Virus record (IMG/VR): IMGVR_UViG_3300045988_007995
Span: 1-20,429 of that record
DNA length: 20,429 nucleotides
Origin: a virus
Lineage: Duplodnaviria > Heunggongvirae > Uroviricota > Caudoviricetes
Strand: one strand, 5' to 3'
Shown: in pieces, positions 1 to 15,564 of the stretch
How the letters are laid out: each line of letters begins with the position of its first letter
Position numbering within the stretch: position 1 is the stretch's first letter
The notes under the pieces: generated by a model
Told to the model about the DNA's origin: nothing
The model's input: only the letters and a program-made list of their open reading frames with translations
Databases searched by the model: none
Position numbers and translations under genes: made by a program

Positions 1-1
1 T

Positions 2-400
2 TCACTCACTCAAGCAGGGCTAGTTGAAGGTTTTCAGTGGGTAGATGGAAGCTTCACAGAACATATTGAACTTATTGAAAAAAGGCCACCGAATGATGTC
101 GATGTTGTGACCTTTTTTCAATTCAGTAATGGCGATAATGATGCAATCGTAATCGGTAGAAAGCCAGAGCTATTTGATCATGATTTTGTTAAGAAGGAGT
201 TTTTCGTAGATTCCTACTTCCAAGAACTTAATCTACCAAGTCATGAGCTTGTTGAAATGACTGTATATTGGTACAGTATGTGGGCACATAGACGCGATCT
301 GTCGTGGAAGGGATTTATCCAAATCCCGTTAAACCCACAACTTGATGTTGTGGCAATGACTATACTTAATTCGGCTACTACTGAGGGGGTCAAACAATGA
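2..400 (+). CDS. 5'-truncated hypothetical protein; first gene of a two-gene operon in the immunity region (rexA-equivalent position)
   Basis: Reading frame is open from the window edge to TGA at 398-400 with no internal start before the end of the frame; stop overlaps the ATG of the next gene (ATGA at 397-400). AT-rich by eye. No motif I can assign. Confidence 0.55.
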   Translation, partial: SLTQAGLVEGFQWVDGSFTEHIELIEKRPPNDVDVVTFFQFSNGDNDAIVIGRKPELFDHDFVKKEFFVDSYFQELNLPSHELVEMTVYWYSMWAHRRDLSWKGFIQIPLNPQLDVVAMTILNSATTEGVKQ

Positions 401-1326
401 ATCGTAATGATTATGTTTTCGCTCTCAGTGAGCGCGAGCAAATAAGTAATCTATTAAAAAATATGCCAACAAGTCATTCTATTAGCCGAAAAAGCTTAGA
501 AGACCGTCTGGAGAAAGTTGAGCGATTAATTTCACAAGCTGACGTTCGAGAACATGAACCTACGCATGCTGTGTTAACTTTTAGAGGCCCAACAGTAGTT
601 GGCACGCATGGCATTTCAGCAGTATTTGGAACAAAAGCTATATCTTGTTTTAATGATGCAATAGCTTACTTGGCAACCTCTTTCAATGGCCCACTTCCTG
701 CATCAGGCAAGATACCAAACATAGAAAATAATCATCTCATGATTACCGCGTCAGCCCGTGGTTCTTTCGGATTCGTACTTGAAGAGTTTAGACCTGATGC
801 TCCTCTTGAATTCGATGAAGAAACCCCAGTAGCAAAAGCTATTAATAAGGCCAGAAAAATATTTCAGGCAAGCTTGGATAATGATGATGAAGAATTGTCT
901 GATGCTATAGAAAACTTAGACTCTCGGGCCTTAGATAAAATCAGAGCATTCATTCATTATCTGCATGAAAATAAAACAGTTTTTACACTTAAAAGCCAAG
1001 GTTTTAGCATCGTTTTTAGAGAGCCAAAACAGCTTGAAGCTGTATATCAACATCTCAGCAATGATAACATTCAGCAGGAAAAAATTATTGAGAACGTTAT
1101 ATTTTTGGGAACTCTTCCTAACAAGCGCCAATGTGAATTTATAGTTTTAGGTAACACTGATATCAGAACCGCTAGCATTGACAAAGCTGTAGATGACCCA
1201 GATATTATAAACAAGCACTTAGGAAGCGTTGCAACAGCCACGTTCCTGAAAAAAACTGTTGGTAAGGGCAAGCCCAGATACACTCTGGTTTCTCGACCTC
1301 AATGGGATATTAAATCAATCGATTAG
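397..1326 (+). CDS. hypothetical 309-aa protein; second gene of the immunity-region operon (rexB-equivalent position but not membrane-like)
   Basis: 309-codon ORF, ATG overlapping upstream stop (translational coupling), followed 15 nt later by a strong intrinsic terminator; AT-rich by eye; no long hydrophobic segments, no Walker or nuclease motif I can recognise. Confidence 0.7.
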   Translation: MNRNDYVFALSEREQISNLLKNMPTSHSISRKSLEDRLEKVERLISQADVREHEPTHAVLTFRGPTVVGTHGISAVFGTKAISCFNDAIAYLATSFNGPLPASGKIPNIENNHLMITASARGSFGFVLEEFRPDAPLEFDEETPVAKAINKARKIFQASLDNDDEELSDAIENLDSRALDKIRAFIHYLHENKTVFTLKSQGFSIVFREPKQLEAVYQHLSNDNIQQEKIIENVIFLGTLPNKRQCEFIVLGNTDIRTASIDKAVDDPDIINKHLGSVATATFLKKTVGKGKPRYTLVSRPQWDIKSID

Positions 1327-1340
1327 AATGAGCCCCTTCA

Positions 1341-1368
1341 GCCCGGCCTCCGCGCCGGGTTTTCTTTT
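1341..1368 (+). terminator. Rho-independent terminator closing the immunity-region operon (tImm-like position)
   Basis: GC-rich hairpin CCCGGC-ctccgc-GCCGGG (1342-1359) followed by TTTTCTTTT. Confidence 0.75.
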
Positions 1369-1518
1369 ACCATCAGCCCGTCAAAAACACACCTAACGAA
1401 TTGTATTTATTGAATAAATATAAATCACACTTATCACATTGCGCAATTCAGCTCCTACACATCCAGACTAGCTCTGCAAAACTTTAAAAAAATAAATCAA
1501 TAGTAAAAACATGCACAT

Positions 1519-1581
1519 AACCATTTGCGGTAATATTTTATCTCTAGCGGTGTTGACGAAAATACCTCCGGCGGTGATACT
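1519..1581 (+). promoter_or_regulatory. Lambda-type OL3-OL2-OL1 operator triplet overlapping a PL-like sigma70 promoter (rightward in this window)
   Basis: Three 17-bp sites AACCATTTGCGGTAATA (1519-1535), TATCTCTAGCGGTGTTG (1539-1555), TACCTCCGGCGGTGATA (1563-1579) with 3-bp and 7-bp spacers; -35 TTGACG (1553-1558), 17-bp spacer, -10 GATACT (1576-1581). By recollection each operator differs from lambda OL3/OL2/OL1 at only 1-2 positions and the downstream transcript start region (acacatcagcaggacgc) is lambda-like. Confidence 0.8.
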
Positions 1582-1626
1582 AAACACATCAGCAGGACGC
1601 TGGAAGCTAAATGGAACAGACTGGCA

Positions 1627-4677: not shown

Positions 4678-4974
4678 ATGCCAGCGCCTCTGTATGGTGC
4701 GGATGACCCGCGCAACTGCTCCGGTAGCTCCAAGGCGGAGGTGCTGGAGAATATCAAAAACAATTTCGACGCGTTTCTTGCTCTGACACCAGAAACAAAA
4801 GCAGAACGGATGTACCGACGCGATATACAACTCGCGCTAAAACAGGAGAAGGACCGAACAAACGAAACAGCAATGAGACCGTTGCGAAAAGCGACAATAG
4901 ACAAATTCCCTGAATATATCGACCCGCGCCTGCGTAATTACCGCTCACGTTATGGTGCTATCAGTAATGACTGA
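4678..4974 (+). CDS. hypothetical protein (98 aa)
   Basis: ORF in series with flanking plus-strand genes; weak RBS; no recognisable motif. Confidence 0.45.
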
Positions 4975-4984
4975 GGAATTTACC

Positions 4985-5149
4985 ATGAGAGGACTTGCAT
5001 ACAATCCCGGCATTCTTCCGGCAGAAATGATTATTCGCCAACGCGTAAAGCCAATGCCATCGAGAGAGGAATTGCTTAAGAGAAATTCTTTTCCGTCAGT
5101 GAATCAAAACAAATATCTGAATGCGATGTTGCGGAGTGGGAAGAAATGA
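4985..5149 (+). CDS. hypothetical small protein (54 aa)
   Basis: ATG at 4985 preceded by GAGGAA (4974-4979); ORF-track frame 4952-5149; stop overlaps next start (ATGA at 5146). Confidence 0.4.
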
Positions 5150-5691
5150 AACAAATGTCACTAATTGAGATGGATGGATTCCTGAAAGGTAAATGCATCC
5201 CAAGCGATTTAAAGGTTAACGAAACAAACGCTGAATATCTGGTGCGTAAATTTGCTGAAGCGGAGGCCAAGTGCGCGGCGCTGGCGGCGGAGAGTGCGCT
5301 GGCTCGTAAGGCAGTTCAGGCATTCTGCGATGTTGTTGGCGACAACACCGAGGTTATCTGTGAGGCGGTTGGGAGAGATGGCGTTCTGGTTATTTTGGAG
5401 GCCATGAAGGCAACAGGAAATATGTCAGCCACCGACGCTTTCCTGGCTGAAATACGTGCGGAGGCACGCAACGAGGGGATTAACTACACCGCAAGCCGTC
5501 TTGCTGCTGCGTTCAATCACGGATTTATCAATAAGTCTTTGCGTGAAGTTTTCGACGTTACACGCATGATTTTGTCAGCGAAAGAAGAGTTGGCTAATGA
5601 ACCGCATCCGATTGATGGCCTGTCCGGTGAATATGCGGAGAAATCCCTTGAAGAATGGGCGGAACAGATTCGCAAAGGAGGCAACCAGTGA
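5146..5691 (+). CDS. hypothetical protein (181 aa)
   Basis: Complete ORF, translationally coupled on both sides (ATGA at 5146, GTGA at 5688); Ala-rich; no motif assigned. Confidence 0.55.
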
Positions 5692-6323
5692 GCAAGATTG
5701 ACTATCAGGCACTGCGTGAGATAGCAAAACAGGCAACACAAGGCGAATGGGTCGCATTTATTTCGTCTGGTACTGGTACGTATGCGGTGCATACGCCCGG
5801 TGATGAACGATGTGAAGACGTTATCAAATGGACCGGCTTTGATGGACAGAAAAACGCAGAGAACAACGCCCATTATATCGCAGCTTTCAACCCTGAAGTA
5901 GTGCAGGCATTACTGGATGAACTGGAAGCCAAAGACAAAGCATGGTCCGCTCAGGACAACCATATCAACCAGCTGGCTGAACGAATTGAATCGCTGGAGA
6001 AGAAGAATGGCGAGATGGGAAGATCGCTGGAAGCCGCAGAGAAGCGCATAGCAGAACTGGAAGCACGGGAAATAAAACCAGCCAAAGGCGAAGTTCTTGT
6101 CGTTGTATCTGGTTTTACTGGTTGCGGGAAAAGCGCCATTGCCGGGGAAATAGAAATTGCGATGAAAGCTATTGGTGTGTCGGTTCAGTGGACTAATGGC
6201 GATGCGGAAAAGCGCATGACAGGAGCTGACTGGCTGACAGCGATTGAGATGTACAAACCAACTGTGCGCATCGTGGAAGTTAATGTGCCACGCGCCGCAG
6301 GCATTCGCATCAAAGGAGAGTGA
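5688..6323 (+). CDS. Ead/Ea22-like family protein (coiled-coil)
   Basis: GTG at 5688 preceded by AAAGGAGG; N-terminus [21 protein letters not shown]... and central heptad-like segment (LEAKDKAW...IAELEAR) match my recollection of lambdoid Ead/Ea22-like proteins. Confidence 0.6.
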   Translation: MSKIDYQALREIAKQATQGEWVAFISSGTGTYAVHTPGDERCEDVIKWTGFDGQKNAENNAHYIAAFNPEVVQALLDELEAKDKAWSAQDNHINQLAERIESLEKKNGEMGRSLEAAEKRIAELEAREIKPAKGEVLVVVSGFTGCGKSAIAGEIEIAMKAIGVSVQWTNGDAEKRMTGADWLTAIEMYKPTVRIVEVNVPRAAGIRIKGE

Positions 6324-6324
6324 T

Positions 6325-7272
6325 ATGACCACTATTACCAAAGAGCGACTGCTGACAATCAGGCAGTGGCGCGAAACATACGGACCTGGTAGCAACGTTG
6401 TACTGCCAGCAGAAGAAGCGGAAGAACTGGCACGAATTGCTCTGGCATCGCTGGAAGCAGAGCCGATAGGTTTCCGTTGCAGGCGCAATGATAACCTTGG
6501 TGATTGGAGTTACGTATATCATCGAGAGCCAGATGATTTTGAGCGCAAACATTTAGTGATAGAGGGCATTTACGCCGCCCCTCCAGCACCGGTAGTGCCT
6601 GAAGAAGCAACTCCGGAAAACGTAGAAATGCTCTCTGGCTATGTTTCAACGTACAAATTAACCGATAGCGAGCGCGATATTGCTGCCGAAATATGGAACG
6701 CCTGCCGCGCCGCCATGCTTCAGTCCGGAAACTTTCGGGAAAACAAGAATTCGTCAACCAATAATTTTCGGGAAATCGCGGAAACGTCAACCAACTATCC
6801 GGCAATTCCTAGTGAGGTGTTGTCCGCAATCCTGAAGGTTGCCAGGATTCGTGCCGATTTCGATGATTTTGACGGTGACAGGCGAGGTATCGGTGATTGT
6901 CTGGATGAGGCTGAGCAAGAGCTTATCGTTACCATTAACAAATATGCCAGTCAGTTGGCAGCAGAACCTATAGCGCCTAATGACGTTCGAGAGCAGACAG
7001 CCATTCCACAAGTTCCGGTAACTCCGGATGGTTGGATAAGCTGTAGTGAGCGAATGCCAGAAATGGGAGAGCGACAATGCTATGTGTTAGCTGCTGACTT
7101 TAAAAACAACTACCTACCAAGCATCCCCAACACTCAGGTCGGCGTATATGGCGACTGGTTTAATGATGGCAAGCCCACTTGGGATGACGGTGGTGGCGAA
7201 GACCTGTATCTCAAGGAGGTAACCCACTGGATGCCGCTGCCAGAACCGCCGCAGGAGGTTAACCGTGGCTAA
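6325..7272 (+). CDS. DUF551-domain protein
   Basis: ATG at 6325 after AAGGAG; C-terminal segment DGWISCSERMPEMGERQCYVLAAD...THWMPLPEPP has the pattern of the DUF551 domain common in lambdoid early regions. Confidence 0.6.
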   Translation: MTTITKERLLTIRQWRETYGPGSNVVLPAEEAEELARIALASLEAEPIGFRCRRNDNLGDWSYVYHREPDDFERKHLVIEGIYAAPPAPVVPEEATPENVEMLSGYVSTYKLTDSERDIAAEIWNACRAAMLQSGNFRENKNSSTNNFREIAETSTNYPAIPSEVLSAILKVARIRADFDDFDGDRRGIGDCLDEAEQELIVTINKYASQLAAEPIAPNDVREQTAIPQVPVTPDGWISCSERMPEMGERQCYVLAADFKNNYLPSIPNTQVGVYGDWFNDGKPTWDDGGGEDLYLKEVTHWMPLPEPPQEVNRG

Positions 7273-7546
7273 CCTGCAACTTGCCGTTAAAGGTGAATAC
7301 TTCGATGCCATGATTCGCGGAGAGAAAACGGAAGAGTATCGCCTGTGTAATGACTACTGGAATAAGCGAATTATGTTCCGCGAGTATGACCGCCTGATTA
7401 TCACAAAGGGATATCCGAAGCGCGACGATTCCAGCCGCAGAATTGACGTCCCGTATGACGGATATGAAATCAAGACAATCACACATCCGCACTTCGGCGA
7501 TAAGCCGGCAAAGGTGTTCGCGATAAAGGTGAATATTGATGGCTAA
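7265..7546 (+). CDS. small PUA-like (ASCH/DUF3850-type) protein, tentative
   Basis: GTG at 7265 preceded by AGGAGG (7251-7256); 93 aa; YFDAMIRGEKTEEYR pattern reminiscent of ASCH/DUF3850 proteins (recollection only). Confidence 0.4.
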   Translation: MANLQLAVKGEYFDAMIRGEKTEEYRLCNDYWNKRIMFREYDRLIITKGYPKRDDSSRRIDVPYDGYEIKTITHPHFGDKPAKVFAIKVNIDG

Positions 7547-7841
7547 ATCAGCAGCAGAGCGCAAAGCCGCTCAGAGAGCCAGACAAGCTGCATCTGGTGT
7601 GCGTAAGCTGGAAATTGTGCTTGATGCTCAGGAAATTGAAATGCTGGAGCGTAACTGTGCCACGCGTCGCCCCGGGCGTGCGCCTTACGAATTTGGTGAG
7701 TATATAGCGTTACTGATCCGCCAGGATGATGCACGCGTGCACGGGCGTATAAAATCGATCAGCAGAAACGTTGCGGTAAGTGCGGCGAGAGAGTTCCCGT
7801 TAATTCATGCCCGTGTAATGGTGACTCGGAATGCTGGGTGA
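7539..7841 (+). CDS. hypothetical basic protein (100 aa), last gene before the packaging module
   Basis: ATG at 7539 after AAGGTG, overlapping previous stop; Arg/Ala-rich N-terminus; no HNH or other motif seen. Confidence 0.5.
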   Translation: MAKSAAERKAAQRARQAASGVRKLEIVLDAQEIEMLERNCATRRPGRAPYEFGEYIALLIRQDDARVHGRIKSISRNVAVSAAREFPLIHARVMVTRNAG

Positions 7842-7871
7842 CTAAAGGCTGGCATGAAACGAAATTAATAG

Positions 7872-7885
7872 CGTGACATGTCACG
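7872..7885. repeat. perfect palindrome CGTGACATGTCACG (copy 1 of 3 of the GTGACATGTCAC core)
   Basis: Exact dyad symmetry read directly; same 12-bp core recurs at 10138-10149 and 10531-10542. Confidence 0.9.
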
Positions 7886-7925
7886 AGTAGATTATGCATG
7901 ATGAATTTGATGGGTTTTGAATACT

Positions 7926-7951
7926 GCCGCCAACTATGGCGGCTTTATTTT
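7926..7951 (+). terminator. intrinsic terminator between the early operon and terS
   Basis: Hairpin GCCGCC-aactat-GGCGGC (7926-7943) followed by TTTATTTT. Confidence 0.7.
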
Positions 7952-7958
7952 GCATGGT

Positions 7959-7987
7959 ACTATTACCACAACGGTAACTATTACCAC
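7959..7987 (+). repeat. two exact 11-bp direct repeats ACTATTACCAC immediately upstream of the terS start
   Basis: Copies at 7959-7969 and 7977-7987 (18-bp period), ending 8 nt before the predicted terS ATG. Confidence 0.85.
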
Positions 7988-7994
7988 GGTGGTT

Positions 7995-8591
7995 ATGATG
8001 CCTGCTGAACCTAAAACCTATAAACGCAAATCAACGCAATTTAAGCCACTAACAGCAATGCAGGAGGCTTATTGCCAGTCATACATCAAAACGCCTGAAA
8101 ACCAGACTCAGGCAGCGATTAACGCAGGATTCTCCCCAAATACAGCGGCAGTTAAAGCCAGTCTCATGATGCGCGATGAACGCATTCAAAAACGGATTGC
8201 CGAGCTGATGGAAGAGCGCAACAAACGAATGCGCGTCAGTGCTGATTACGTTCTCATGCGCCTGGTGGAGATCGACCAGATGGACGTGATCGACATCCTC
8301 AACGACGATGGGAGCCTTAAGCCAATCCGCGAGTGGCCGAAAATCTGGCGCACTACGCTTAGTGGCTTTGATCTGTCATCGACCATCATGAACATGAACG
8401 AGGATTCGATAGAGACAATCCTCAAAAAAATTAAATGGCCTGACAAGGTGAAGAACCTCGAACTGATTGGTAAGCACGTCGACGTCAACGCATTCAAAGA
8501 ACGCCTGGATGTTAATGTGAATGTGACAATTGCTGATCGCATAGCGGCAGCCAGGAAGAGACTGAAAGAACGTCAGGATGGCAATCAGTGA
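7995..8591 (+). CDS. terS: terminase small subunit (P27-family-like)
   Basis: Located immediately upstream of and overlapping (GTGA) the large terminase gene; start placed at ATG 7995 (MMPAEPKTYKRK...) because the ORF-track extension from 7917 spans the terminator and direct repeats. Confidence 0.65.
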   Translation: MMPAEPKTYKRKSTQFKPLTAMQEAYCQSYIKTPENQTQAAINAGFSPNTAAVKASLMMRDERIQKRIAELMEERNKRMRVSADYVLMRLVEIDQMDVIDILNDDGSLKPIREWPKIWRTTLSGFDLSSTIMNMNEDSIETILKKIKWPDKVKNLELIGKHVDVNAFKERLDVNVNVTIADRIAAARKRLKERQDGNQ

Positions 8592-10063
8592 CAGATACAG
8601 CGTTATCTCCTGAAGAGCAGTTAATCGAGGATATTGCAGGGTTCACTCACGATCCGCTTGGCTATGCCCTCTATGCGTTCCCATGGGGGGAAGAGGGGAC
8701 TGAACTGGCACATGCCACCGGCCCACGTCAGTGGCAGGCTGATGCGTTCCGAGAGATACGTGATCACCTGCAGAATCCAGAGACGCGCTATCAGCCGCTT
8801 ATGCTGGCACGCGCTTCTGGTCACGGTATTGGTAAATCCGCATTCATCTCAATGCTGATCAACTGGGGCATGTCCACTTGCGAGGATTGTAAGGTCGTGG
8901 TGACCGCCAACACCGACAACCAGCTACGAACGAAGACCTGGCCGGAAATTATCAAGTGGTCGAACCTTGCTATCACGAAAGACTGGTTTACCTGTACCGC
9001 TACCGCGATGTACAGCAATGACCTAGGGCACGACAAGCGGTGGCGGGCTGACGCAATACCCTGGTCTGAGCACAACACCGAGGCATTCGCCGGACTACAC
9101 AACGAGCGCAAACGCATCATCGTGGTGTTTGATGAAGCGTCGAACATTGCGGATCTGGTGTGGGAAGTTGCCGAGGGTGCGCTTACGGACGAAGACACTG
9201 AGATTATTTGGGTGGCGTTCGGAAACCCTACACGTAACACCGGGCGTTTTCGCGAATGTTTCCGCAAATATAAACACCGCTGGAAAACTGCGCAGATTGA
9301 CAGCCGGACGGTGGAAGGCACTAACAAACAGCAGTTGCAGAAATGGGTTGATGACTACGGGGAAGACAGCGACTTCGTTAAAATCCGTGTGCGTGGCATA
9401 TTCCCTGATGCATCTGAATTGCAGTTTATCCCTACCGGTCTTACTGACGAGGCAATGAAACGGGTGGTAACCGCTGCGCAGGTTGCACATGCTCCGGTGA
9501 TAATCGGCGTTGACCCGGCATACTCCGGCGTTGATGACGCTGTGATATACCTGCGGCAGGGGCTACACAGTAAGGTGCTGTGGACTGGCAACAAGACTAC
9601 CGACGATCTGATTATGGCGAAGCGTATCGCTGACTTTGAAGACCAGTATCAGGCTGACGCGGTGTTCATCGACTTCGGTTACGGAACCGGTTTGAAGTCA
9701 ATCGGTGACGGCTGGGGTCGTACATGGCAACTTGTTCCGTTCGGTGGCGCGTCTACTGACCCGCAGATGCTCAACAAGCGTGGGGAGATGTTCAATTCAT
9801 GCAAGACATGGCTGAGGCTGGGCGGCATGCTGGATGACCAGGAAACAGCAGACGACCTGTCGGCGGCAGAGTACAAAGTTCGAGTGGACGGTAAAATCGT
9901 TATCGAACCGAAGGAAGATATCAAGGAGCGGCTTGGGCGTTCACCGGGTAAAGGCGATGCGCTACTGCTGACGTTTGCGTTCCCTGTGTCTAAGCGTCTG
10001 CGAATTCCCGGTCAGCAGAACCAGCAAGGCAAGGCCATCACAGATTACGATCCCTATGCTTAA
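8588..10063 (+). CDS. terL: terminase large subunit
   Basis: 491-aa ORF; GTG start overlapping terS stop; ATPase-like segment ...IIVVFDEASNI... (Walker B-like) and overall size and position typical of phage TerL. Confidence 0.85.
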   Translation: MTDTALSPEEQLIEDIAGFTHDPLGYALYAFPWGEEGTELAHATGPRQWQADAFREIRDHLQNPETRYQPLMLARASGHGIGKSAFISMLINWGMSTCEDCKVVVTANTDNQLRTKTWPEIIKWSNLAITKDWFTCTATAMYSNDLGHDKRWRADAIPWSEHNTEAFAGLHNERKRIIVVFDEASNIADLVWEVAEGALTDEDTEIIWVAFGNPTRNTGRFRECFRKYKHRWKTAQIDSRTVEGTNKQQLQKWVDDYGEDSDFVKIRVRGIFPDASELQFIPTGLTDEAMKRVVTAAQVAHAPVIIGVDPAYSGVDDAVIYLRQGLHSKVLWTGNKTTDDLIMAKRIADFEDQYQADAVFIDFGYGTGLKSIGDGWGRTWQLVPFGGASTDPQMLNKRGEMFNSCKTWLRLGGMLDDQETADDLSAAEYKVRVDGKIVIEPKEDIKERLGRSPGKGDALLLTFAFPVSKRLRIPGQQNQQGKAITDYDPYA

Positions 10064-10104
10064 TCCGCTGGTGGGGATAATGTCGTTGATATCCTCTGGT
10101 GAGG

Positions 10105-10133
10105 ATAAAACAAAGCCAGCTCATAGGCTGGCT
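10105..10133 (-). terminator. minus-strand intrinsic terminator downstream of the opposite-strand gene pair
   Basis: Hairpin AGCCAGC-ctatga-GCTGGCT followed on the minus strand by TTGTTTTAT; protects terL from antisense read-through. Confidence 0.5.
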
Positions 10134-10137
10134 GTTT

Positions 10138-10149
10138 GTGACATGTCAC
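10138..10149. repeat. palindrome GTGACATGTCAC (copy 2), 4 nt downstream of the gene A stop codon
   Basis: Exact 12-bp palindrome; flanking context CTGtTTGTGACATGTCACGGtGTTA nearly identical to copy 3. Confidence 0.9.
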
Positions 10150-10153
10150 GGTG

Positions 10154-10486
10154 TTATTTCGGTAGATTGTGTTTGGCATTCGACTCGTCTATCACGTAAC
10201 GCATTGCAGTTCGACCGAGATTACCAGGATCTTCATGCAGACTCACTCGTGCCTTTAGGAGCACACATTCAGCCTTGACATAGTTTGCTGGAATTATTCC
10301 TACCTCGGCATTTTTAAATGCCTCCTTCACCGCCTCACCGTTGTACTGACCGCCAAGCAACTCTGTACATGTCAGGTTGTTATGGATAATTGCAAGGAGA
10401 TCTTTAATCTCTTCACGCAGGTTTACAATCGCCATCGCGGCATTGATAGCTGCGGCATAGCGCTCAGCTGCAGTCTTCTCTTTCAT
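10154..10486 (-). CDS. hypothetical 110-aa protein (opposite-strand insert gene A)
   Basis: Minus-strand ORF; start placed at MKEKTAAERY... (ATG complement at 10484-10486) preceded by AAGGTGA; the only long ORF in this interval on either strand. Confidence 0.55.
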   Translation of the reverse strand: MKEKTAAERYAAAINAAMAIVNLREEIKDLLAIIHNNLTCTELLGGQYNGEAVKEAFKNAEVGIIPANYVKAECVLLKARVSLHEDPGNLGRTAMRYVIDESNAKHNLPK

Positions 10487-10498
10487 GATTTTCACCTT

Positions 10499-10525
10499 AA
10501 AAAAATGCCCGGCGAATCGGCGGGC
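10499..10525 (-). promoter_or_regulatory. conserved hairpin plus T7 tract directly upstream of gene A RBS (copy 1 of duplicated 5' element)
   Basis: Minus strand reads GCCCGCCGATTCGCCGGGCATTTTTTTAAGGTGAAAATCATG; terminator-like stem GCCCG/CGGGC then U-tract, immediately followed by the RBS. Confidence 0.5.
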
Positions 10526-10530
10526 TGATT

Positions 10531-10542
10531 GTGACATGTCAC
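10531..10542. repeat. palindrome GTGACATGTCAC (copy 3), 4 nt downstream of the gene B stop codon
   Basis: Exact 12-bp palindrome in context CTGaTTGTGACATGTCACGGcGTTA. Confidence 0.9.
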
Positions 10543-10546
10543 GGCG

Positions 10547-10969
10547 TTAGAAGGTTATTTTATCGAATGCGGCGTTGATTGCCTTGGCGTCCTGCTCAGC
10601 ACCAACCACATCAAGTAAAGATCTTTTACTAAGCACTTCAGCCAGGCATTGTAACTTCATGTTGTATAAGTTTTCGCGCATGTAATCATCATCACTTTTT
10701 TCTTTGGCGTATACAGCGCGAGAAATATCAAACACATTGCCTTTTTCCATTTCAGTTTTCTGCGCTGAAATCCAGTCATGGCAAGTAACTCCTATTCCAT
10801 GGTCATCGCTAAGCGTTAACCCGGCAAGTCGCTCACCTGGAATTGCTTCACAAAGCATTTCATTTCCTGCAAAAACACCATAAAAAATTGAGTCATCACC
10901 CTGAACAATGCGTACATATTTGCACGGCCATTCATTTAGATATTTAGCTAGCATGTCGGCTGTTTTCAT
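10547..10969 (-). CDS. hypothetical 140-aa protein (opposite-strand insert gene B)
   Basis: Minus-strand ORF; start placed at MKTADMLAKY... (ATG complement at 10967-10969) preceded by TAGGTGA; upstream ORF-track extension crosses the hairpin/T-tract and is rejected. Confidence 0.55.
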   Translation of the reverse strand: MKTADMLAKYLNEWPCKYVRIVQGDDSIFYGVFAGNEMLCEAIPGERLAGLTLSDDHGIGVTCHDWISAQKTEMEKGNVFDISRAVYAKEKSDDDYMRENLYNMKLQCLAEVLSKRSLLDVVGAEQDAKAINAAFDKITF

Positions 10970-10979
10970 GATCTCACCT

Positions 10980-11005
10980 AAAAAAAATGCCCGGCGAATC
11001 GGGCG
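10980..11005 (-). promoter_or_regulatory. conserved hairpin plus T8 tract directly upstream of gene B RBS (copy 2 of duplicated 5' element)
   Basis: Minus strand reads CGCCCGATTCGCCGGGCATTTTTTTTAGGTGAGATCATG; about 40 nt alignable with copy 1. Confidence 0.5.
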
Positions 11006-11045
11006 AACTGGAAGCAATGAGTTATGCCTTCCGTGGCTGTACTGG

Positions 11046-11085
11046 TTTACAGCATGAAGCCATCGCAATGGCGTCATGCTGTAAA
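11046..11085. repeat. 40-bp near-perfect nested palindrome
   Basis: TTTACAGCATGA-aGCCATcgcaATGGCg-TCATGCTGTAAA: 12-bp outer arms with a 5-bp inner dyad. Confidence 0.85.
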
Positions 11086-11124
11086 AAGGGCGGTGATAGT
11101 CCTTCAAGGGAAACCATCACCGCC
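11083..11124 (-). terminator. minus-strand terminator 43 nt downstream of the tRNA
   Basis: 9-bp stem GGCGGTGAT/ATCACCGCC with 18-nt loop, followed on the minus strand by CTTTTT. Confidence 0.5.
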
Positions 11125-11167
11125 AAGCCCCTGGAACTTCTGGCATCACGGTCCTTAGGCGTGATTC

Positions 11168-11244
11168 TGGCGTGGCATGCAGGATTCGAACCTGCGACCA
11201 ACCGCTTAGAAAGCGGTTGCTCTGTCCAGCTGAGCTAATGCCAC
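11168..11244 (-). tRNA. tRNA-Arg (anticodon UCU), phage-encoded
   Basis: 77-nt cloverleaf on the minus strand: acceptor GTGGCAT/ATGCCAC, D-stem GCTC/GAGC, anticodon stem ACCGC/GCGGT with loop TT-TCT-AA, T-stem GCAGG/CCTGC with TTCGAAT loop, discriminator G and encoded CCA. Confidence 0.85.
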
Positions 11245-11671
11245 AACGCTGAGAGCACTTAGCCTGTTAAGGCGCCACACTTTGTCGCGGCTCCATAAAT
11301 GCTCTCATCGTTGTACCCTCGTCTCTTCCGAGGCGTCACACCGAATCGCCGGGATGGTGAATCCCCGTGCGCGGAATAAAACCGCTCGACTTGCACATTC
11401 CGGCTACCTGGTTCGTTTGCCACAGCCAGGGAGGGTGCCCCTTAAACGTATCCAGACCGCTATCGGCGCATGTGCCATACGCCGTACTGCTCAAAATAAA
11501 AGCTCACTCCACCTGTTCAATTTAACGACAAGCCAGTCAGGTTAGTAACCGGAATGAACTCTTTGGTTACCTGAAAGGTAATAATTTGTGCGTTAAATGT
11601 CAACTACCTACGATAAATAAATCATATGTGGTTAAATTGGTAATAATTTAATTGCGTACGGAGTCATTGAT

Positions 11672-11878
11672 ATGTGCATGGGTAGCTCACCATCAGTGCC
11701 TGCAACACCAGAAGTTCAGGCAGCACCACAGGAGCAGGATGCCGCCGTTGTTGATGCCCGCGACGAAGAAACTCGTCGCCGTCGCGCTGCTGCTGGTCGT
11801 AGTTCTACGCTGCTTACCGGTTCTCAGGGCGACACATCAACCGCTAATACCAGCGGTAAAACGCTGCTTGGTCAGTAA
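11672..11878 (+). CDS. small virion-associated protein candidate (T7 gp6.7-like?), 68 aa
   Basis: ATG at 11672 preceded by GGAG; begins MC..., Ser/Pro/Ala-rich; immediately upstream of the portal gene, whose leader shares the motif CGGAGTCATTGA(t/a)ATG. Confidence 0.45.
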   Translation: MCMGSSPSVPATPEVQAAPQEQDAAVVDARDEETRRRRAAAGRSSTLLTGSQGDTSTANTSGKTLLGQ

Positions 11879-11892
11879 CCGGAGTCATTGAA

Positions 11893-13572
11893 ATGGCGGA
11901 AACAACTAAAGAGCGATTGAACAAACAGTTCGCACAACTTGAAAGCGAGCGTCAGTCGTTCGAGCCGCACTGGCGCGAGTTGAGTGATTACATCAACCCG
12001 CGTGGTTCCCGCTTTCTGACTTCTGAGGTCAACCGTAACGATCGACGCAATACACGCATTATTGATTCGACCGGGACTATGGCGGCGCGCACTCTCGCCA
12101 GCGGCATGATGTCAGGCATCACAAGCCCCGCGCGTCCGTGGTTTCGCCTGGCTACGCCAGATCCTGAAATGATGGATTATGGCCCTGTTAAGTTGTGGCT
12201 TGAGGCGGTGCAGAACCGCATGAACGATATGTTCAATAAGTCGAATCTCTATCAGTCGCTGCCGCAGTTATACGGAAGCCTCGGCACATACAGCACTGGT
12301 GCAATGGCAGTGCTGGAGGATGACGAGGACATCATTCGCACAATGCCATTCCCGATAGGCAGTTACTACCTGGCTAACTCACCTCGTGGCAGTGTGGACA
12401 CCTGTTTTCGCAAGTTCTCTATGACTGTTCGTCAGCTTGTTCAGGAGTTCGGGCTAAATAACGTCAGCGAATCCGTAAAAAGCATGTGGGAAAGCGGAAC
12501 CTACGAGAAGTGGATTGAAGTGATGCATTCGGTTTACCCGAACATTGACCGCGATACATCGAAGCTGGATAGCAAGAACAAGCCATTCAAATCGGTTTAT
12601 TACGAGGTTGGTGGCGATAACGACAAGTTGTTGCGTGAGTCCGGATTCGATGAGTTTCCAATTATGGCTCCGCGCTGGGAAGTTAACGGCGAAGATGTTT
12701 ATGGATCATCATGCCCGGGTATGCTGGCGCTTGGACCTGTTAAGGCATTGCAGCTTCTCCAGAAGCGCAAGTCGCAGTTGATTGATAAAGCCACCAATCC
12801 GCCGATGGTTGCTCCGACTTCCCTCAAGAATCAGCGTGCCTCCCTTCTTCCTGGCGACATCACGTATATCGATCAGATTACTGGTCAGGATGGTTTCAGG
12901 CCTGCTTATCTGGTTAACCCCAGTACAGCAGATTTGGTGGCAGACATTCAGGACACCCGTCAAATCATTAACAGCGCCTACTTTGTCGATCTGTTCATGA
13001 TGTTGCAGAACATCAATACCCGCTCGATGCCTGTTGAAGCGGTGATCGAAATGAAAGAAGAAAAACTTCTGATGTTGGGGCCGGTTCTGGAGCGTCTGAA
13101 CGACGAATGTCTTAATCCTCTCATTGACCGCGCTTTCTCGATGATGGTGCGTAAAAACATGCTGCCGCCACCGCCTGACGCGATGGAAGGTATGCCCCTG
13201 AAGGTCGAATACATTTCCGTCATGGCTCAGGCGCAGAAGTCTATCGGCCTGTCCAGTCTGGCGTCTACGGTCAACTTCATTGGTCAACTTGCGCAAGCGA
13301 AACCAGAAGCTCTCGACAAACTCAACGTTGATCAGGCGATCGATGCATTCGCTGATATGTCCGGAGTGTCTCCAACCGTCATTGTTCCGCAGGAACAGGT
13401 TGAGCAGGCTCGCCAGCAACGGGCACAGCAACAACAGCAGCAACAAATGATGGCGATGGGGATGGCGGCGGCACAGGGTGCCAAGACGCTAAGCGAAGCT
13501 AAAACTTCGGATCCGAGTGTTTTGTCAGCTATGGCGAATGCAGTTAGTGGTCAGGGTGGGCAATCACAATGA
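11893..13572 (+). CDS. portal (head-to-tail connector) protein, T7 gp8-like
   Basis: 559-aa ORF following terL; C-terminal Q/A/M-rich tract (QQRAQQQQQQQMMAMGMAAAQGAK) resembles the T7 connector C-terminus as I recall it. Confidence 0.8.
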   Translation: MAETTKERLNKQFAQLESERQSFEPHWRELSDYINPRGSRFLTSEVNRNDRRNTRIIDSTGTMAARTLASGMMSGITSPARPWFRLATPDPEMMDYGPVKLWLEAVQNRMNDMFNKSNLYQSLPQLYGSLGTYSTGAMAVLEDDEDIIRTMPFPIGSYYLANSPRGSVDTCFRKFSMTVRQLVQEFGLNNVSESVKSMWESGTYEKWIEVMHSVYPNIDRDTSKLDSKNKPFKSVYYEVGGDNDKLLRESGFDEFPIMAPRWEVNGEDVYGSSCPGMLALGPVKALQLLQKRKSQLIDKATNPPMVAPTSLKNQRASLLPGDITYIDQITGQDGFRPAYLVNPSTADLVADIQDTRQIINSAYFVDLFMMLQNINTRSMPVEAVIEMKEEKLLMLGPVLERLNDECLNPLIDRAFSMMVRKNMLPPPPDAMEGMPLKVEYISVMAQAQKSIGLSSLASTVNFIGQLAQAKPEALDKLNVDQAIDAFADMSGVSPTVIVPQEQVEQARQQRAQQQQQQQMMAMGMAAAQGAKTLSEAKTSDPSVLSAMANAVSGQGGQSQ

Positions 13573-14571: not shown

Positions 14572-15564
14572 ATGACAATGGCTGTTAAAGGCTTAACTGC
14601 GCTAACGCTGGCTGACTGGGGTAAGCGCGTCGATCCAAACGGGAAAGTCGATAAGATTATCGAGCTTCTCGGTCAAACTAACCCGATCCTTCAGGATATG
14701 CCTTTTGTCGAAGGGAACCTTCCTACCGGACACCGAACCACCATTCGTTCTGGTTTACCTTCAGCTACCTGGCGTTTGCTGAACTATGGCGTACAGCCAA
14801 GCAAATCAACCACAGTGCAGGTAACCGATTCCGTTGGCATGCTGGAAACCTATGCGGAAGTCGATAAGTCACTGGCTGATCTGAACGGCAATACCGCCGA
14901 ATTCCGCCTGTCTGAAGACCGCGCATTTATTGAAGCGATGAATCAGCAGATGGCGCAGACGCTGTTTTATGGTGATTCCAGCGTTAACCCTCAGCAGTTT
15001 ATGGGACTGTCCTCCCGCTATTCCAGCCTGTCTGCGGGTAATGCTCAGAACATCATTGATGCTGGTGGCACGGGTACAGATAACACCTCAATCTGGTTAG
15101 TGGTGTGGGGCGAAAACACCGTGCATGGCATCTTCCCGAAAGGGCAGAAGGCTGGCATCCAGATGGAAGATAAAGGCCAGGTGACACTGGAAGATGCTAA
15201 TGGCGGCAAGTACGAAGGCTATCGCACCCATTACAAATGGGATAACGGACTTGCTCTGCGTGACTGGCGTTATGTTGTTCGCATTGCAAACATCGATGTC
15301 AGCAATATTTCAGAACCATCCTCTGCCGCAAATATTGCGAAGTTGATGGTTAAAGCACTACATCGCATTCCAAACCGTGGCATGGGCCGCCCGGTGTTCT
15401 ACATGAACCGCACTGTAGGCCAGGCTCTTGATCTGCAATCTCTGGAGAAAACATCTCTGGCTATCAGCGTAAAAGAGACTGAAGGCGAGTGGTGGACTTC
15501 ATTCCGTGGTGTACCAATCCGTGAAACTGATGCGCTTCTGGAAACAGAATCCCGCGTGGTGTAA
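14572..15564 (+). CDS. major capsid protein
   Basis: 330-aa ORF after GAGAGGAAA, in the canonical position after portal and scaffold; assignment by size and synteny, not motif. Confidence 0.65.
   Translation: MTMAVKGLTALTLADWGKRVDPNGKVDKIIELLGQTNPILQDMPFVEGNLPTGHRTTIRSGLPSATWRLLNYGVQPSKSTTVQVTDSVGMLETYAEVDKSLADLNGNTAEFRLSEDRAFIEAMNQQMAQTLFYGDSSVNPQQFMGLSSRYSSLSAGNAQNIIDAGGTGTDNTSIWLVVWGENTVHGIFPKGQKAGIQMEDKGQVTLEDANGGKYEGYRTHYKWDNGLALRDWRYVVRIANIDVSNISEPSSAANIAKLMVKALHRIPNRGMGRPVFYMNRTVGQALDLQSLEKTSLAISVKETEGEWWTSFRGVPIRETDALLETESRVV

Follow-up and report, generated by a model that had tools for sequence, protein, structure and literature searches.

The DNA that separates cI from PL in lambdoid phages has long been studied as a location of lysogen-expressed exclusion genes, such as rexAB, and RexB is a membrane protein. 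Among two-gene modules that contain a nucleotidyltransferase, AbiE is an established abortive-infection system.

The closest catalogued relative of the locus described here is PDC-M63, a phage-defence candidate with the cassette FAM_00167>>FAM_00523 (Payne et al., bioRxiv 10.1101/2024.01.29.577857). The PDC candidates derive from genes located inside BREX, DISARM or type I RM systems, and the A family of PDC-M63 also pairs with FAM_01519 in 269 instances, a combination that was rejected by the authors (bioRxiv 10.1101/2024.01.29.577857). In the only published test, deletion of PDC-M63AB from its native host, E. coli NILS69, left the infectivity of all 10 virulent phages unchanged. A literature search found no papers on DUF6932, PF22014, the two RefSeq accessions of the pair or its PHROG ids, and nucleotidyltransferases are not mentioned in DefensePredictor or in a domain-centric discovery paper.

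The window, which is the whole 20,429-nt stretch of viral DNA that was analysed, begins within a two-gene cassette, termed A–B, in the immunity region of a lambda-type prophage. Judged by sequence, A–B is a variant of PDC-M63, a catalogued but unvalidated defence candidate, and it is a plausible candidate for an anti-phage module.

The gene pair in the rexA-rexB slot

Positions 1–1370 of the window contain the 3′ 133 codons of gene A, gene B (309 aa) and a terminator. The features of the region are as follows.

1..400, + strand: gene A (partial), predicted DUF6932 minimal nucleotidyltransferase; the complete gene (192 aa) has its start 178 nt before the window
383..400, + strand: coupling junction, a Shine-Dalgarno-like GAGGGGG (383–389) followed by ATGA, read directly from the sequence
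397..1326, + strand: gene B, encoding an uncharacterised, predicted soluble protein of 309 aa
1340..1371, + strand: intrinsic terminator, homologue of tIMM, from the terminator scan and alignment to the lambda rexB-end/tIMM region
1541..1600, + strand: lambda-type OL operators and PL promoter, with a –35 TTGACG at 1553 and a –10 GATACT ending at 1581, from the promoter scan and alignment to lambda OL/PL

The open frame of gene A extends from base 2 through its TGA stop (398–400). The start codon of gene B overlaps the stop codon of gene A in the shared ATGA, and the GAGGGGG is placed 7 nt ahead of the ATG of gene B, in agreement with the translational coupling of the original prediction. The predicted terminator was also found; its stem-loop (1340–1361) consists of 8 base pairs, of which 6 are G-C, and is followed by TTCTTTT. 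The sequence CCCGGCCTC(C/A)GCGCCGGGTTTTC is conserved between this terminator and the lambda rexB-end/tIMM region. The cassette had been described as AT-rich, and its GC content (0.35–0.41) is indeed below that of cI (0.42–0.47), although the difference is modest. The maximum Kyte–Doolittle mean over 19 residues was 1.13 for A and 1.16 for B, with a hydrophobic segment in neither. B is therefore not a membrane protein, as had been expected from its lack of long hydrophobic segments. Since B belongs to a family of 1,487 clusters and A has a Pfam match, both are evidently real genes and not chance ORFs.

When the first 1,500 positions of the window were compared with 5,426 complete E. coli genomes, a 100% identical prophage was found in 8 of them. 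In these prophages gene A is complete, with 192 codons and a TTG start, and a LexA-family repressor gene lies 86 nt upstream of it, with cro divergent. This repressor shares 95% identity with lambda cI, so that the upstream extension recovered both the cI-like repressor and the full first gene, as the original prediction had proposed to check. Similarity to lambda breaks at the stop codon of cI and restarts at the stem of the tIMM terminator. Therefore, the A–B pair sits in the slot of rexA-rexB. The predicted rexAB position in an imm-lambda region was thus borne out by the cI identity, the two breakpoints and the close alignment of the window OL/PL with lambda OL/PL. The OL/PL at 1541..1600 forms the right-hand boundary of the slot.

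The pair resembles lambda RexA-RexB in its place between the imm-lambda cI and tIMM and in having two genes that are both co-oriented with cI. However, the proteins differ. Homology of A and B to RexA or RexB, which the original prediction had also doubted, was ruled out by hhalign, with all probabilities below 1% (0.1%, 0.1% and at most 0.6%). A and B both lack a membrane segment, and A is a predicted enzyme of the nucleotidyltransferase superfamily.

In other imm-lambda-like prophages, the slot between cI and N contains PIN/NYN genes or other genes for hypothetical proteins. Lambda cI-like genes were present in 618 genomes and rexAB in only 99. On the + strand between cI and A, the terminator scan did not find a terminator-like site. 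Since the pair lies between cI and tIMM, lysogens most likely transcribe it together with the repressor gene, and its genomic context fits lysogen-expressed accessory cargo. Because the lambda repressor, operators and tIMM were kept and rexAB was swapped for A–B, the locus provides a near-isogenic natural experiment.

A predicted nucleotidyltransferase and its uncharacterised partner

Gene A matched Pfam DUF6932 with 93.6 bits (gathering cutoff 27; E 2e-26), and the same match was obtained for all 29 A homologues. The gene also corresponds to phrog_9194. Residues G76, S77, D92 and D94 of the motif VDGSF...NDVDVV were invariant in the 29 diverse homologues, and the sequence satisfies the Pol-beta-type pattern, hG[GS] followed 10–15 residues later by [DE]x[DE]. 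The third catalytic carboxylate, D130, was invariant as well and is located in a predicted strand (residues 129–135). The top matches in the fold search were MNT, ANT, CD-NTase and poly(A) polymerase; the MNT proteins were nearest, at low scores, and the CD-NTase matches were weak. No Pfam MNT-type or NTP_transf_2 model was matched, and the family profile gave only spurious PPR-repeat matches against PDB sequences. By motif and probably by fold, A is thus assigned as a minimal Pol-beta-type nucleotidyltransferase, with an intact catalytic motif and predicted activity. The original prediction could place neither protein; for A this no longer holds, as it is DUF6932, phrog_9194, PDC-M63A and, by motif and probably by fold, a Pol-beta-type nucleotidyltransferase.

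For B, the statement stood. Window B matched no model of Pfam, NCBIfam or PADLOC, and no full-length fold match was found. When 46 diverse relatives were searched against the same three libraries, only marginal matches to PDC-M63B and PDC-M32A were obtained. The family profile gave only spurious matches against PDB sequences (uL23 and BAG1, at E>0.1). The family is nevertheless large: a search of 1.8 billion representatives matched 1,487 clusters (50% identity) at E<=1e-3. In its model, B starts with a helical hairpin, continues with a conserved alpha/beta core and a helical bundle, and ends in a small beta-barrel, which resembles OB-like nucleic-acid or ligand binders in the fold comparison. 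Conservation is concentrated in the core (residues 60–80 and 114–130, with the motif ARGSFGFVLEE). In its most conserved loop, Ser123 is invariant and Thr117 near-invariant. The later segments are variable. Domain and fold searches recognised no catalytic or effector domain in B, so that a killing mechanism is not evident.

Distribution of the pair and relation to PDC-M63

A is directly upstream of B in 47 of 52 genome loci, which cover several bacterial phyla and the archaeon Methanoculleus, and in the majority of these 47 the two genes are contiguous or overlapping. At the five unpaired B loci, A was truncated or at a contig edge in two, the contig was short or ended in two, and one was without A. 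Distant A homologues were always followed by a gene of 300–311 aa without a Pfam match. The synteny of A and B is near-obligate across bacterial phyla and in one archaeon. No conserved third gene was found among 125 neighbours of the 47 loci.

The pair was also found in prophages with unrelated repressors, just downstream of the repressor gene; these are a second E. coli prophage type, present in 26 genomes, and prophages of Salmonella and Proteus. In viral contigs of IMG/VR, all 34 carriers of B also carried A. Upstream neighbour ORFs were scanned from 25 of these 34 contigs, and 17 of the 27 contained HTH_3, 9 of them together with Peptidase_S24 and 7 with Phage_CI_repr. A homologue of B was found in none of 50,697 deposited phage genomes, virulent phages included. 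Most family members are at non-prophage chromosomal loci, one of them in an archaeon, and many copies stand alone among housekeeping genes. Neighbours at other loci include integrases, resolvases, DRT2 reverse transcriptases, mad2 and a type I methylase; by raw counts, defence genes among the neighbours are few.

Decayed copies were observed for both genes. A was frameshifted, truncated or absent with B intact at L028, L039, L048 and L010, and B was frameshifted with A intact at L040, L079 and L096. The four copies with an intact B might be explained by sequencing errors or by compensation. Since breaks were found in both genes, they are uninformative as to which gene is toxin and which antitoxin, beyond weakly opposing a constitutive toxin.

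Window A matched the PADLOC model PDC-M63A at 2.2e-10, and the A protein of the second E. coli variant matched it at 2.5e-11. Like PDC-M63, the locus is a two-gene cassette of a small DUF6932-like protein followed by a partner of ~300–326 aa. In contrast, window B matched no PADLOC model, PDC-M63B included, at E<=1. Most of the B proteins checked likewise lacked a PDC-M63B match, which was obtained for 5 of the 46 diverse relatives (best 2.4e-5, collinear at the C-terminus) and, weakly, for one of nine further B proteins. Some distant relatives matched PDC-M32A marginally. Without a PDC-M63B match for window B, PADLOC would not call the locus. The original prediction had proposed an undescribed system; this had to be given up, because a DUF6932-like protein with a ~320-aa partner was already catalogued as PDC-M63.

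Possible functions of A–B

There is about an even chance that A–B is a self-contained, horizontally mobile conflict module, carried as prophage cargo and providing putative lysogen-expressed exclusion or abortive infection through nucleotidyl transfer. We infer lysogenic expression, formation of an A–B complex, a defence phenotype and an acceptor of the transfer. In this scheme, A would be the only recognisable enzyme, a minimal Pol-beta-type nucleotidyltransferase that is predicted to be catalytically intact. B would be a non-enzymatic partner, whose conserved core may form an A-facing or functional surface and whose variable later segments, including the OB-like beta-barrel, may be the sensing or target-binding part. 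A and B would be complexed in the lysogen, and on superinfection a phage component sensed by B would switch nucleotidyl transfer by A. Candidate acceptors are B itself, the 3′ end of tRNA or another RNA, and a molecule of the phage. The cell would then stop growing or the phage would fail to replicate, which amounts to exclusion or abortive infection. This reading is favoured by the exchange of rexAB for A–B behind cI, the varied cargo of the slot, the repeated siting beside repressors, the near-obligate pairing and the enzyme motif of A, and independently by the signs of a defence context, namely the PADLOC matches, the origin of the PDC candidates and the neighbours at other loci. It is weakened by the unchanged infectivity after deletion of PDC-M63AB, the lack of a PADLOC match for window B and of a recognisable effector domain in B, the small number of defence genes among the neighbours, the many copies that stand alone and the absence of B from the deposited phage genomes. 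More tentatively, B may be a sensor with a new fold that couples phage recognition to an MNT-like A nucleotidylating a protein or RNA target, which would represent uncharacterised bacterial and archaeal immunity.

The known nucleotidyltransferase modules suggest other roles for the two proteins. A has as its nearest solved structures the MNT partners of HEPN-MNT (HepT/MntA) pairs (2rff, 1ylq, 1no5, 5yep and 8xeh, with low scores) and has the GS/DxD catalytic motif in common with them. As in HEPN-MNT, the nucleotidyltransferase gene comes first and its partner overlaps it. If B were a constitutive toxin silenced by nucleotidylation, as in these type VII toxin-antitoxin systems, Ser123 and Thr117 of its most conserved loop would be possible acceptor residues, and the mobile, patchy distribution of the pair would fit stabilisation of a prophage or mobile element rather than defence. 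However, B is not a HEPN RNase, as its model combines mixed alpha/beta elements and a beta-barrel and is not all-helical. A HEPN reading was considered and rejected: the spacing R183-x6-H190 is present, but neither His is among the conserved columns. In the two B alignments, none of the invariant or near-invariant columns is a His, and hence there is no conserved Rx4-6H. The four loci with an intact B and a broken or absent A are unexpected for a constitutive toxin. A, with 192 aa, is longer than the matched MNT chains of 92–119 aa, has conserved regions at its N-terminus (RSPY) and C-terminus (YW..H.R...WKG), and shares no detectable sequence similarity with them. A role as a type VII-like toxin-antitoxin is thus quite improbable. 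The opposite assignment, in which A is a toxin that blocks tRNA acceptor ends like AbiEii/MenT and is released on infection by B, an antitoxin and phage sensor, is unlikely but deserves somewhat more weight. A is the only predicted enzyme and its catalytic triad is invariant, its conserved C-terminal aromatic/basic patch (Y149, W150, H156, W162 and K163) might hold an RNA 3′ end, the variable segments of B are of the sensor-domain kind, and its barrel is like those of OB-like binders. AbiE/MenAT is likewise a two-gene module with a Pol-beta-superfamily nucleotidyltransferase as the active component, in AbiE for abortive infection. Nevertheless, A and B matched no DUF1814/AbiEii or AbiEi model: Pfam returned only DUF6932 for A, and PADLOC gave no AbiE model. 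The gene order is opposite to that of AbiEi-AbiEii, A is smaller than the AbiEii/MenT proteins, B lacks a wHTH antitoxin domain, and A remained intact at the three loci where B was frameshifted.

CBASS and Hailong HalB share the architecture of a nucleotidyltransferase with a partner, and CdnC, CdnE, CdnB and DncV of CBASS were among the weak fold matches of A. In contrast to CBASS, A lacks the CD-NTase C-terminal domain and PADLOC matched no CBASS model; B carries neither a transmembrane, nuclease or SAVED domain nor any other effector or sensor domain that is known. Functions outside host protection have slight probability. In a lysogenic-conversion or housekeeping role, A might nucleotidylate an antibiotic, a metabolite or some other small molecule, while B would bind or assist. 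The strict pairing with a non-enzymatic partner of 300 aa, the repeated siting beside prophage repressors, the patchy spread across phyla and into an archaeon, and the location within defence systems in the PDC study are features that conflict systems, and not resistance enzymes, typically show. Least probable of all is a pair that benefits the phage in lytic growth or establishment, for example in counter-defence or host takeover, rather than protecting the host from within the lysogen. The pair is phage-borne and within the early regulatory region, and nucleotide-modifying enzymes are common phage counter-defence tools. However, it is co-oriented with cI, is placed between cI and tIMM and lies outside the PL and PR operons, most family members are chromosomal and not in prophages, and B was absent from the deposited phage genomes.

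The more tentative reading of B as a new-fold sensor coupled to an MNT-like A, if true, would add a third logic of nucleotidyltransferase-based defence, apart from CBASS-type signalling and from the AbiE/MenT or HEPN-MNT toxin-antitoxin systems. The cassette comes from a very large unannotated family whose partner B has no known fold match, and it is amenable to a direct test in E. coli K-12 using lambda genetics. If A–B does not defend, it would be a clean case of cargo exchange at an immunity-region hotspot. If it does, a function would be given to Pfam DUF6932, one clade of the PDC-M63 candidate would be validated, and a nucleotidyltransferase-based mechanism would be added.

The rexAB position of the immunity region

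The left end of the window contained the predicted two-gene arrangement and terminator (1–1370), composed of the following elements:

2–400, + strand: 3' part of gene A, an open frame of 133 codons with its stop at 398–400
397–1326, + strand: gene B, a 309-codon ORF whose ATG, preceded by GAGGGGG, overlaps the stop of A as ATGA
1340–1371, + strand: G+C-rich hairpin and T tract, corresponding to lambda tIMM

A prophage 100% identical to window 1–1500 was present in 8 of 5,426 complete E. coli genomes, among them O7:K1 strain CE10, whose annotation supplied the upstream part absent from the window. The complete A was composed of 192 residues and was named 'DUF6932 family protein', and B was labelled 'hypothetical protein'. 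The repressor expected upstream was found as a LexA-family gene located 86 nt from A, with cro divergent from it. The AT-richness claimed for the cassette was present but only modest (GC 0.35–0.41 versus 0.42–0.47 in cI). Neither A nor B contained a hydrophobic segment, in agreement with the prediction for B.

The CE10 repressor was 95% identical to lambda cI across all 237 residues, and the lambda OL operators and PL promoter aligned with the window from 1380 onward, which bore out the predicted rexA–rexB position in a lambda-type immunity region. Lambda homology was lost past the cI stop codon and regained at the tIMM terminator stem (CCCGGCCTCnGCGCCGGGTTTTC). The alignment thus places A–B in the rexAB slot, as a cassette that takes the place of rexA–rexB; the 'strong terminator' of the original prediction is lambda's own tIMM. 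The proposed comparison with lambda RexA and RexB revealed no homology to the A and B families (profile comparison probabilities <1%), and a relationship was rejected. No terminator-like site was found on the coding strand between cI and A, which fits co-transcription of cI, A and B.

Lambda cI-like genes were present in 618 genomes and rexAB in only 99. In three other imm-lambda-like prophages the slot held either PIN/NYN genes or else hypothetical genes, so the cI-to-N slot is a variable cargo site. In these three, with cI of ~90% nucleotide identity, the contents were a PIN pseudogene and a NYN-domain gene (L104, 3842–4699), a 129-aa hypothetical gene (L105, 3842–4231), or two hypothetical genes (L106, 4140–5044).

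The remainder of the window contained the following features:

1771–2043: N-position gene, encoding an arginine-rich protein (MSRKTEFKGTSASRRRARRANLQ...)
2105–2728: Nmad5 (nucleotide-modification-associated domain 5) protein (Pfam, 4.2e-71), encoded in the early-left operon after the N-like gene and before cIII
2937–2995: lambda cIII thermoregulator RNA element (Rfam RF01804, 88.5 bits), upstream of cIII
upstream of 7917: Ea22 and DUF551 genes, directly before the Terminase_2 gene
7917–8588: Terminase_2 small subunit
8588–10063: ORF after the small terminase gene, no Pfam match
11168–11244, − strand: tRNA-Arg (anticodon TCT), between ORF 8588–10063 and the portal gene
11893–13569: T7-type portal
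14572–15561: GP7 major capsid protein

The N-position gene is not lambda N, despite the lambda-type cI and OL/PL, and lambda alignment was lost past PL. The C-terminus of its product presumably resembles P22 gene 24. An Nmad5 gene also followed N in other imm-lambda-like prophages. The CE10 prophage match ended near base 5100, with divergence beyond. No possible integrase ORF of at least 110 aa was found between the Ea22/DUF551 genes and the terminase, portal and capsid genes, and no complete E. coli genome covered at least 80% of window 4800–12800. The identical cI–A–B module is therefore carried by at least two different phage backbones.

Families and predicted structures of A and B

Neither protein had been assigned to a family in the original prediction. 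This did not hold for A, which matched Pfam DUF6932 (2e-26), phrog_9194 (2.7e-38), and PDC-M63A (2.2e-10), a PADLOC candidate model. Among 29 aligned homologues (identity down to 37%), residues Gly76-Ser77, Asp92-X-Asp94, and Asp130 were invariant and formed hG[GS]...[DE]x[DE]...[DE], the signature of Pol-beta-type nucleotidyltransferases. An N-terminal RSPY segment was also conserved, and residues Tyr149, Trp150, His156, Trp162, Lys163, and Gly164 formed an invariant C-terminal patch. The AlphaFold model of A was confident (pLDDT 90.7). Its best Foldseek neighbours in the PDB were weak but consistent, including a putative nucleotidyltransferase (2rff, probability 0.96), the SO_3166/SO_3165 MNT–HEPN pair, and CdnC; in the modelled shape, MNT proteins are the closest. 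No sequence-level nucleotidyltransferase family was detected for A in PDB or Pfam. From these motifs and the model, A is probably an active, divergent minimal nucleotidyltransferase.

B had no match in Pfam, NCBIfam, or PADLOC, and its sole match was phrog_18731, with function unassigned there. A word-indexed search gave 31 relatives, for the most part from Enterobacterales, and an exhaustive profile search gave 1,487 clusters (50% identity) at E ≤ 1e-3 and 614 at E ≤ 1e-30. Most of the 150 matches listed were ~300–315 aa long. Along the B model (pLDDT 86.1), a helical hairpin at the N-terminus was followed by a small α/β unit, then a helical bundle, and finally a β-barrel at the C-terminus. 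Conservation peaked at residues 60–80 and 114–130 (ARGSFGFVLEE), and residues 201–235 and the C-terminal end were variable even between close relatives. B looks non-enzymatic, since neither His nor Cys was conserved in its sequence and no nuclease motif could be recognised.

Conservation and placement of the A–B pair

A and B formed one unit. At 47 of 52 loci encoding a B relative, drawn from one-genome-per-species contigs, an A homologue was directly upstream, mostly abutting or overlapping B. Of the five exceptions, one had a truncated A, one had A at a contig edge, two were loci at the end of a contig or on a short one, and L010 truly had no A. The loci came from Proteobacteria, Planctomycetota, Armatimonadota, Leptospira, Hymenobacter, Bryobacteraceae, and the archaeon Methanoculleus. 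Distant A homologues all had a downstream gene of 300–311 aa without a Pfam match, and every one of the 34 IMG/VR contigs carrying B carried A as well. No third conserved gene was found around the pair; the neighbours included integrases (5), HTH_3 proteins (5), resolvases (4), DRT2-type reverse transcriptases (2), mad2 proteins (2), a type I methylase (1), and plain housekeeping genes.

Alone among the B homologues, the one at locus L010 (4650–6777) had no accompanying A gene. B directly followed a 371-aa ORF, a putative Mrr-type restriction endonuclease by eye only, and adjoined a 1105-aa SNF2-like helicase on the opposite strand. B may be able to pair with other effectors, or the locus may just have lost A.

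The predicted setting, a lysogen-type cargo site beside a repressor, recurred in several prophages. A second E. coli variant (A at 67% nucleotide identity, 26 genomes) was located downstream of a different LexA-family repressor, the Salmonella pair followed a 155-aa CI-type repressor, and the Proteus pair followed cI and a DUF3024 gene. Among 27 upstream ORFs scanned from 25 of the 34 IMG/VR contigs, 17 contained HTH_3, with Peptidase_S24 in 9 of these and Phage_CI_repr in 7. In Proteus-type prophages (L059–L062, 5614–5949; L095; L096), the DUF3024 gene between the cI-like repressor and A–B encoded 111 aa. In a Burkholderia contaminans element (L066, 4114–7520), A–B followed phage lysozyme, LprI, and DUF6232 genes, not a repressor, and one upstream neighbour in the IMG/VR contigs was a lysozyme-family protein. 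The end of the lysis cassette may be a second cargo position.

Relation to PDC-M63 and proposed function

The 145 PDC systems in PADLOC are candidates, as yet untested, that were drawn from genes located inside BREX, DISARM or type I RM loci (10.1101/2024.01.29.577857). As listed there, the PDC-M63 cassette reads FAM_00167>>FAM_00523 and has 45 instances, and supplementary table 8 marks a 269-instance cassette of FAM_00167 (the PDC-M63A family) with another partner, FAM_01519, as 'Reject' (10.1101/2024.01.29.577857). The system is therefore not wholly 'undescribed' as first proposed, the architecture being already catalogued as PDC-M63, still unvalidated, and the original interpretation is supported in part. 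The suggested PADLOC comparison succeeded for A, which matched PDC-M63A, whereas B matched no model, PDC-M63B included. PDC-M63B was matched by 5 of 46 diverse B relatives and one Leptospira B, collinear at the C-terminus, and PDC-M32A by 6 of the 46. On these profile matches, the locus represents a clade sister to PDC-M63, one that would escape a PADLOC call. No paper mentioning DUF6932 or the A/B accessions was found in the literature. In the only experiment found, removing PDC-M63AB from E. coli NILS69 changed infectivity for 0 of 10 virulent phages.

A lysogen-expressed conflict module is the best-supported reading. The biochemical output would be nucleotidyl transfer by A, and B, its partner, would sense or bind a target; we infer the defence phenotype, the A–B complex, and the acceptor of the transfer. 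Two rivals are more specific versions of this mechanism, HEPN–MNT-like or AbiE/MenT-like. Decayed copies had A broken and B intact (L028, L039, L048) or B broken and A intact (L040, L079, L096). Because breaks occurred in both genes, these copies, anecdotal and in some cases possible assembly errors, offer weak evidence that neither protein is a constitutive toxin and favour a trigger-dependent two-component system.

Interest in the A–B pair is tempered by the many such candidates and by the negative result for one relative, PDC-M63AB. The pair is worth testing for the precise replacement of rexAB in an otherwise lambda-type immunity region, and for the very large B family, with a fold that has no known counterpart.
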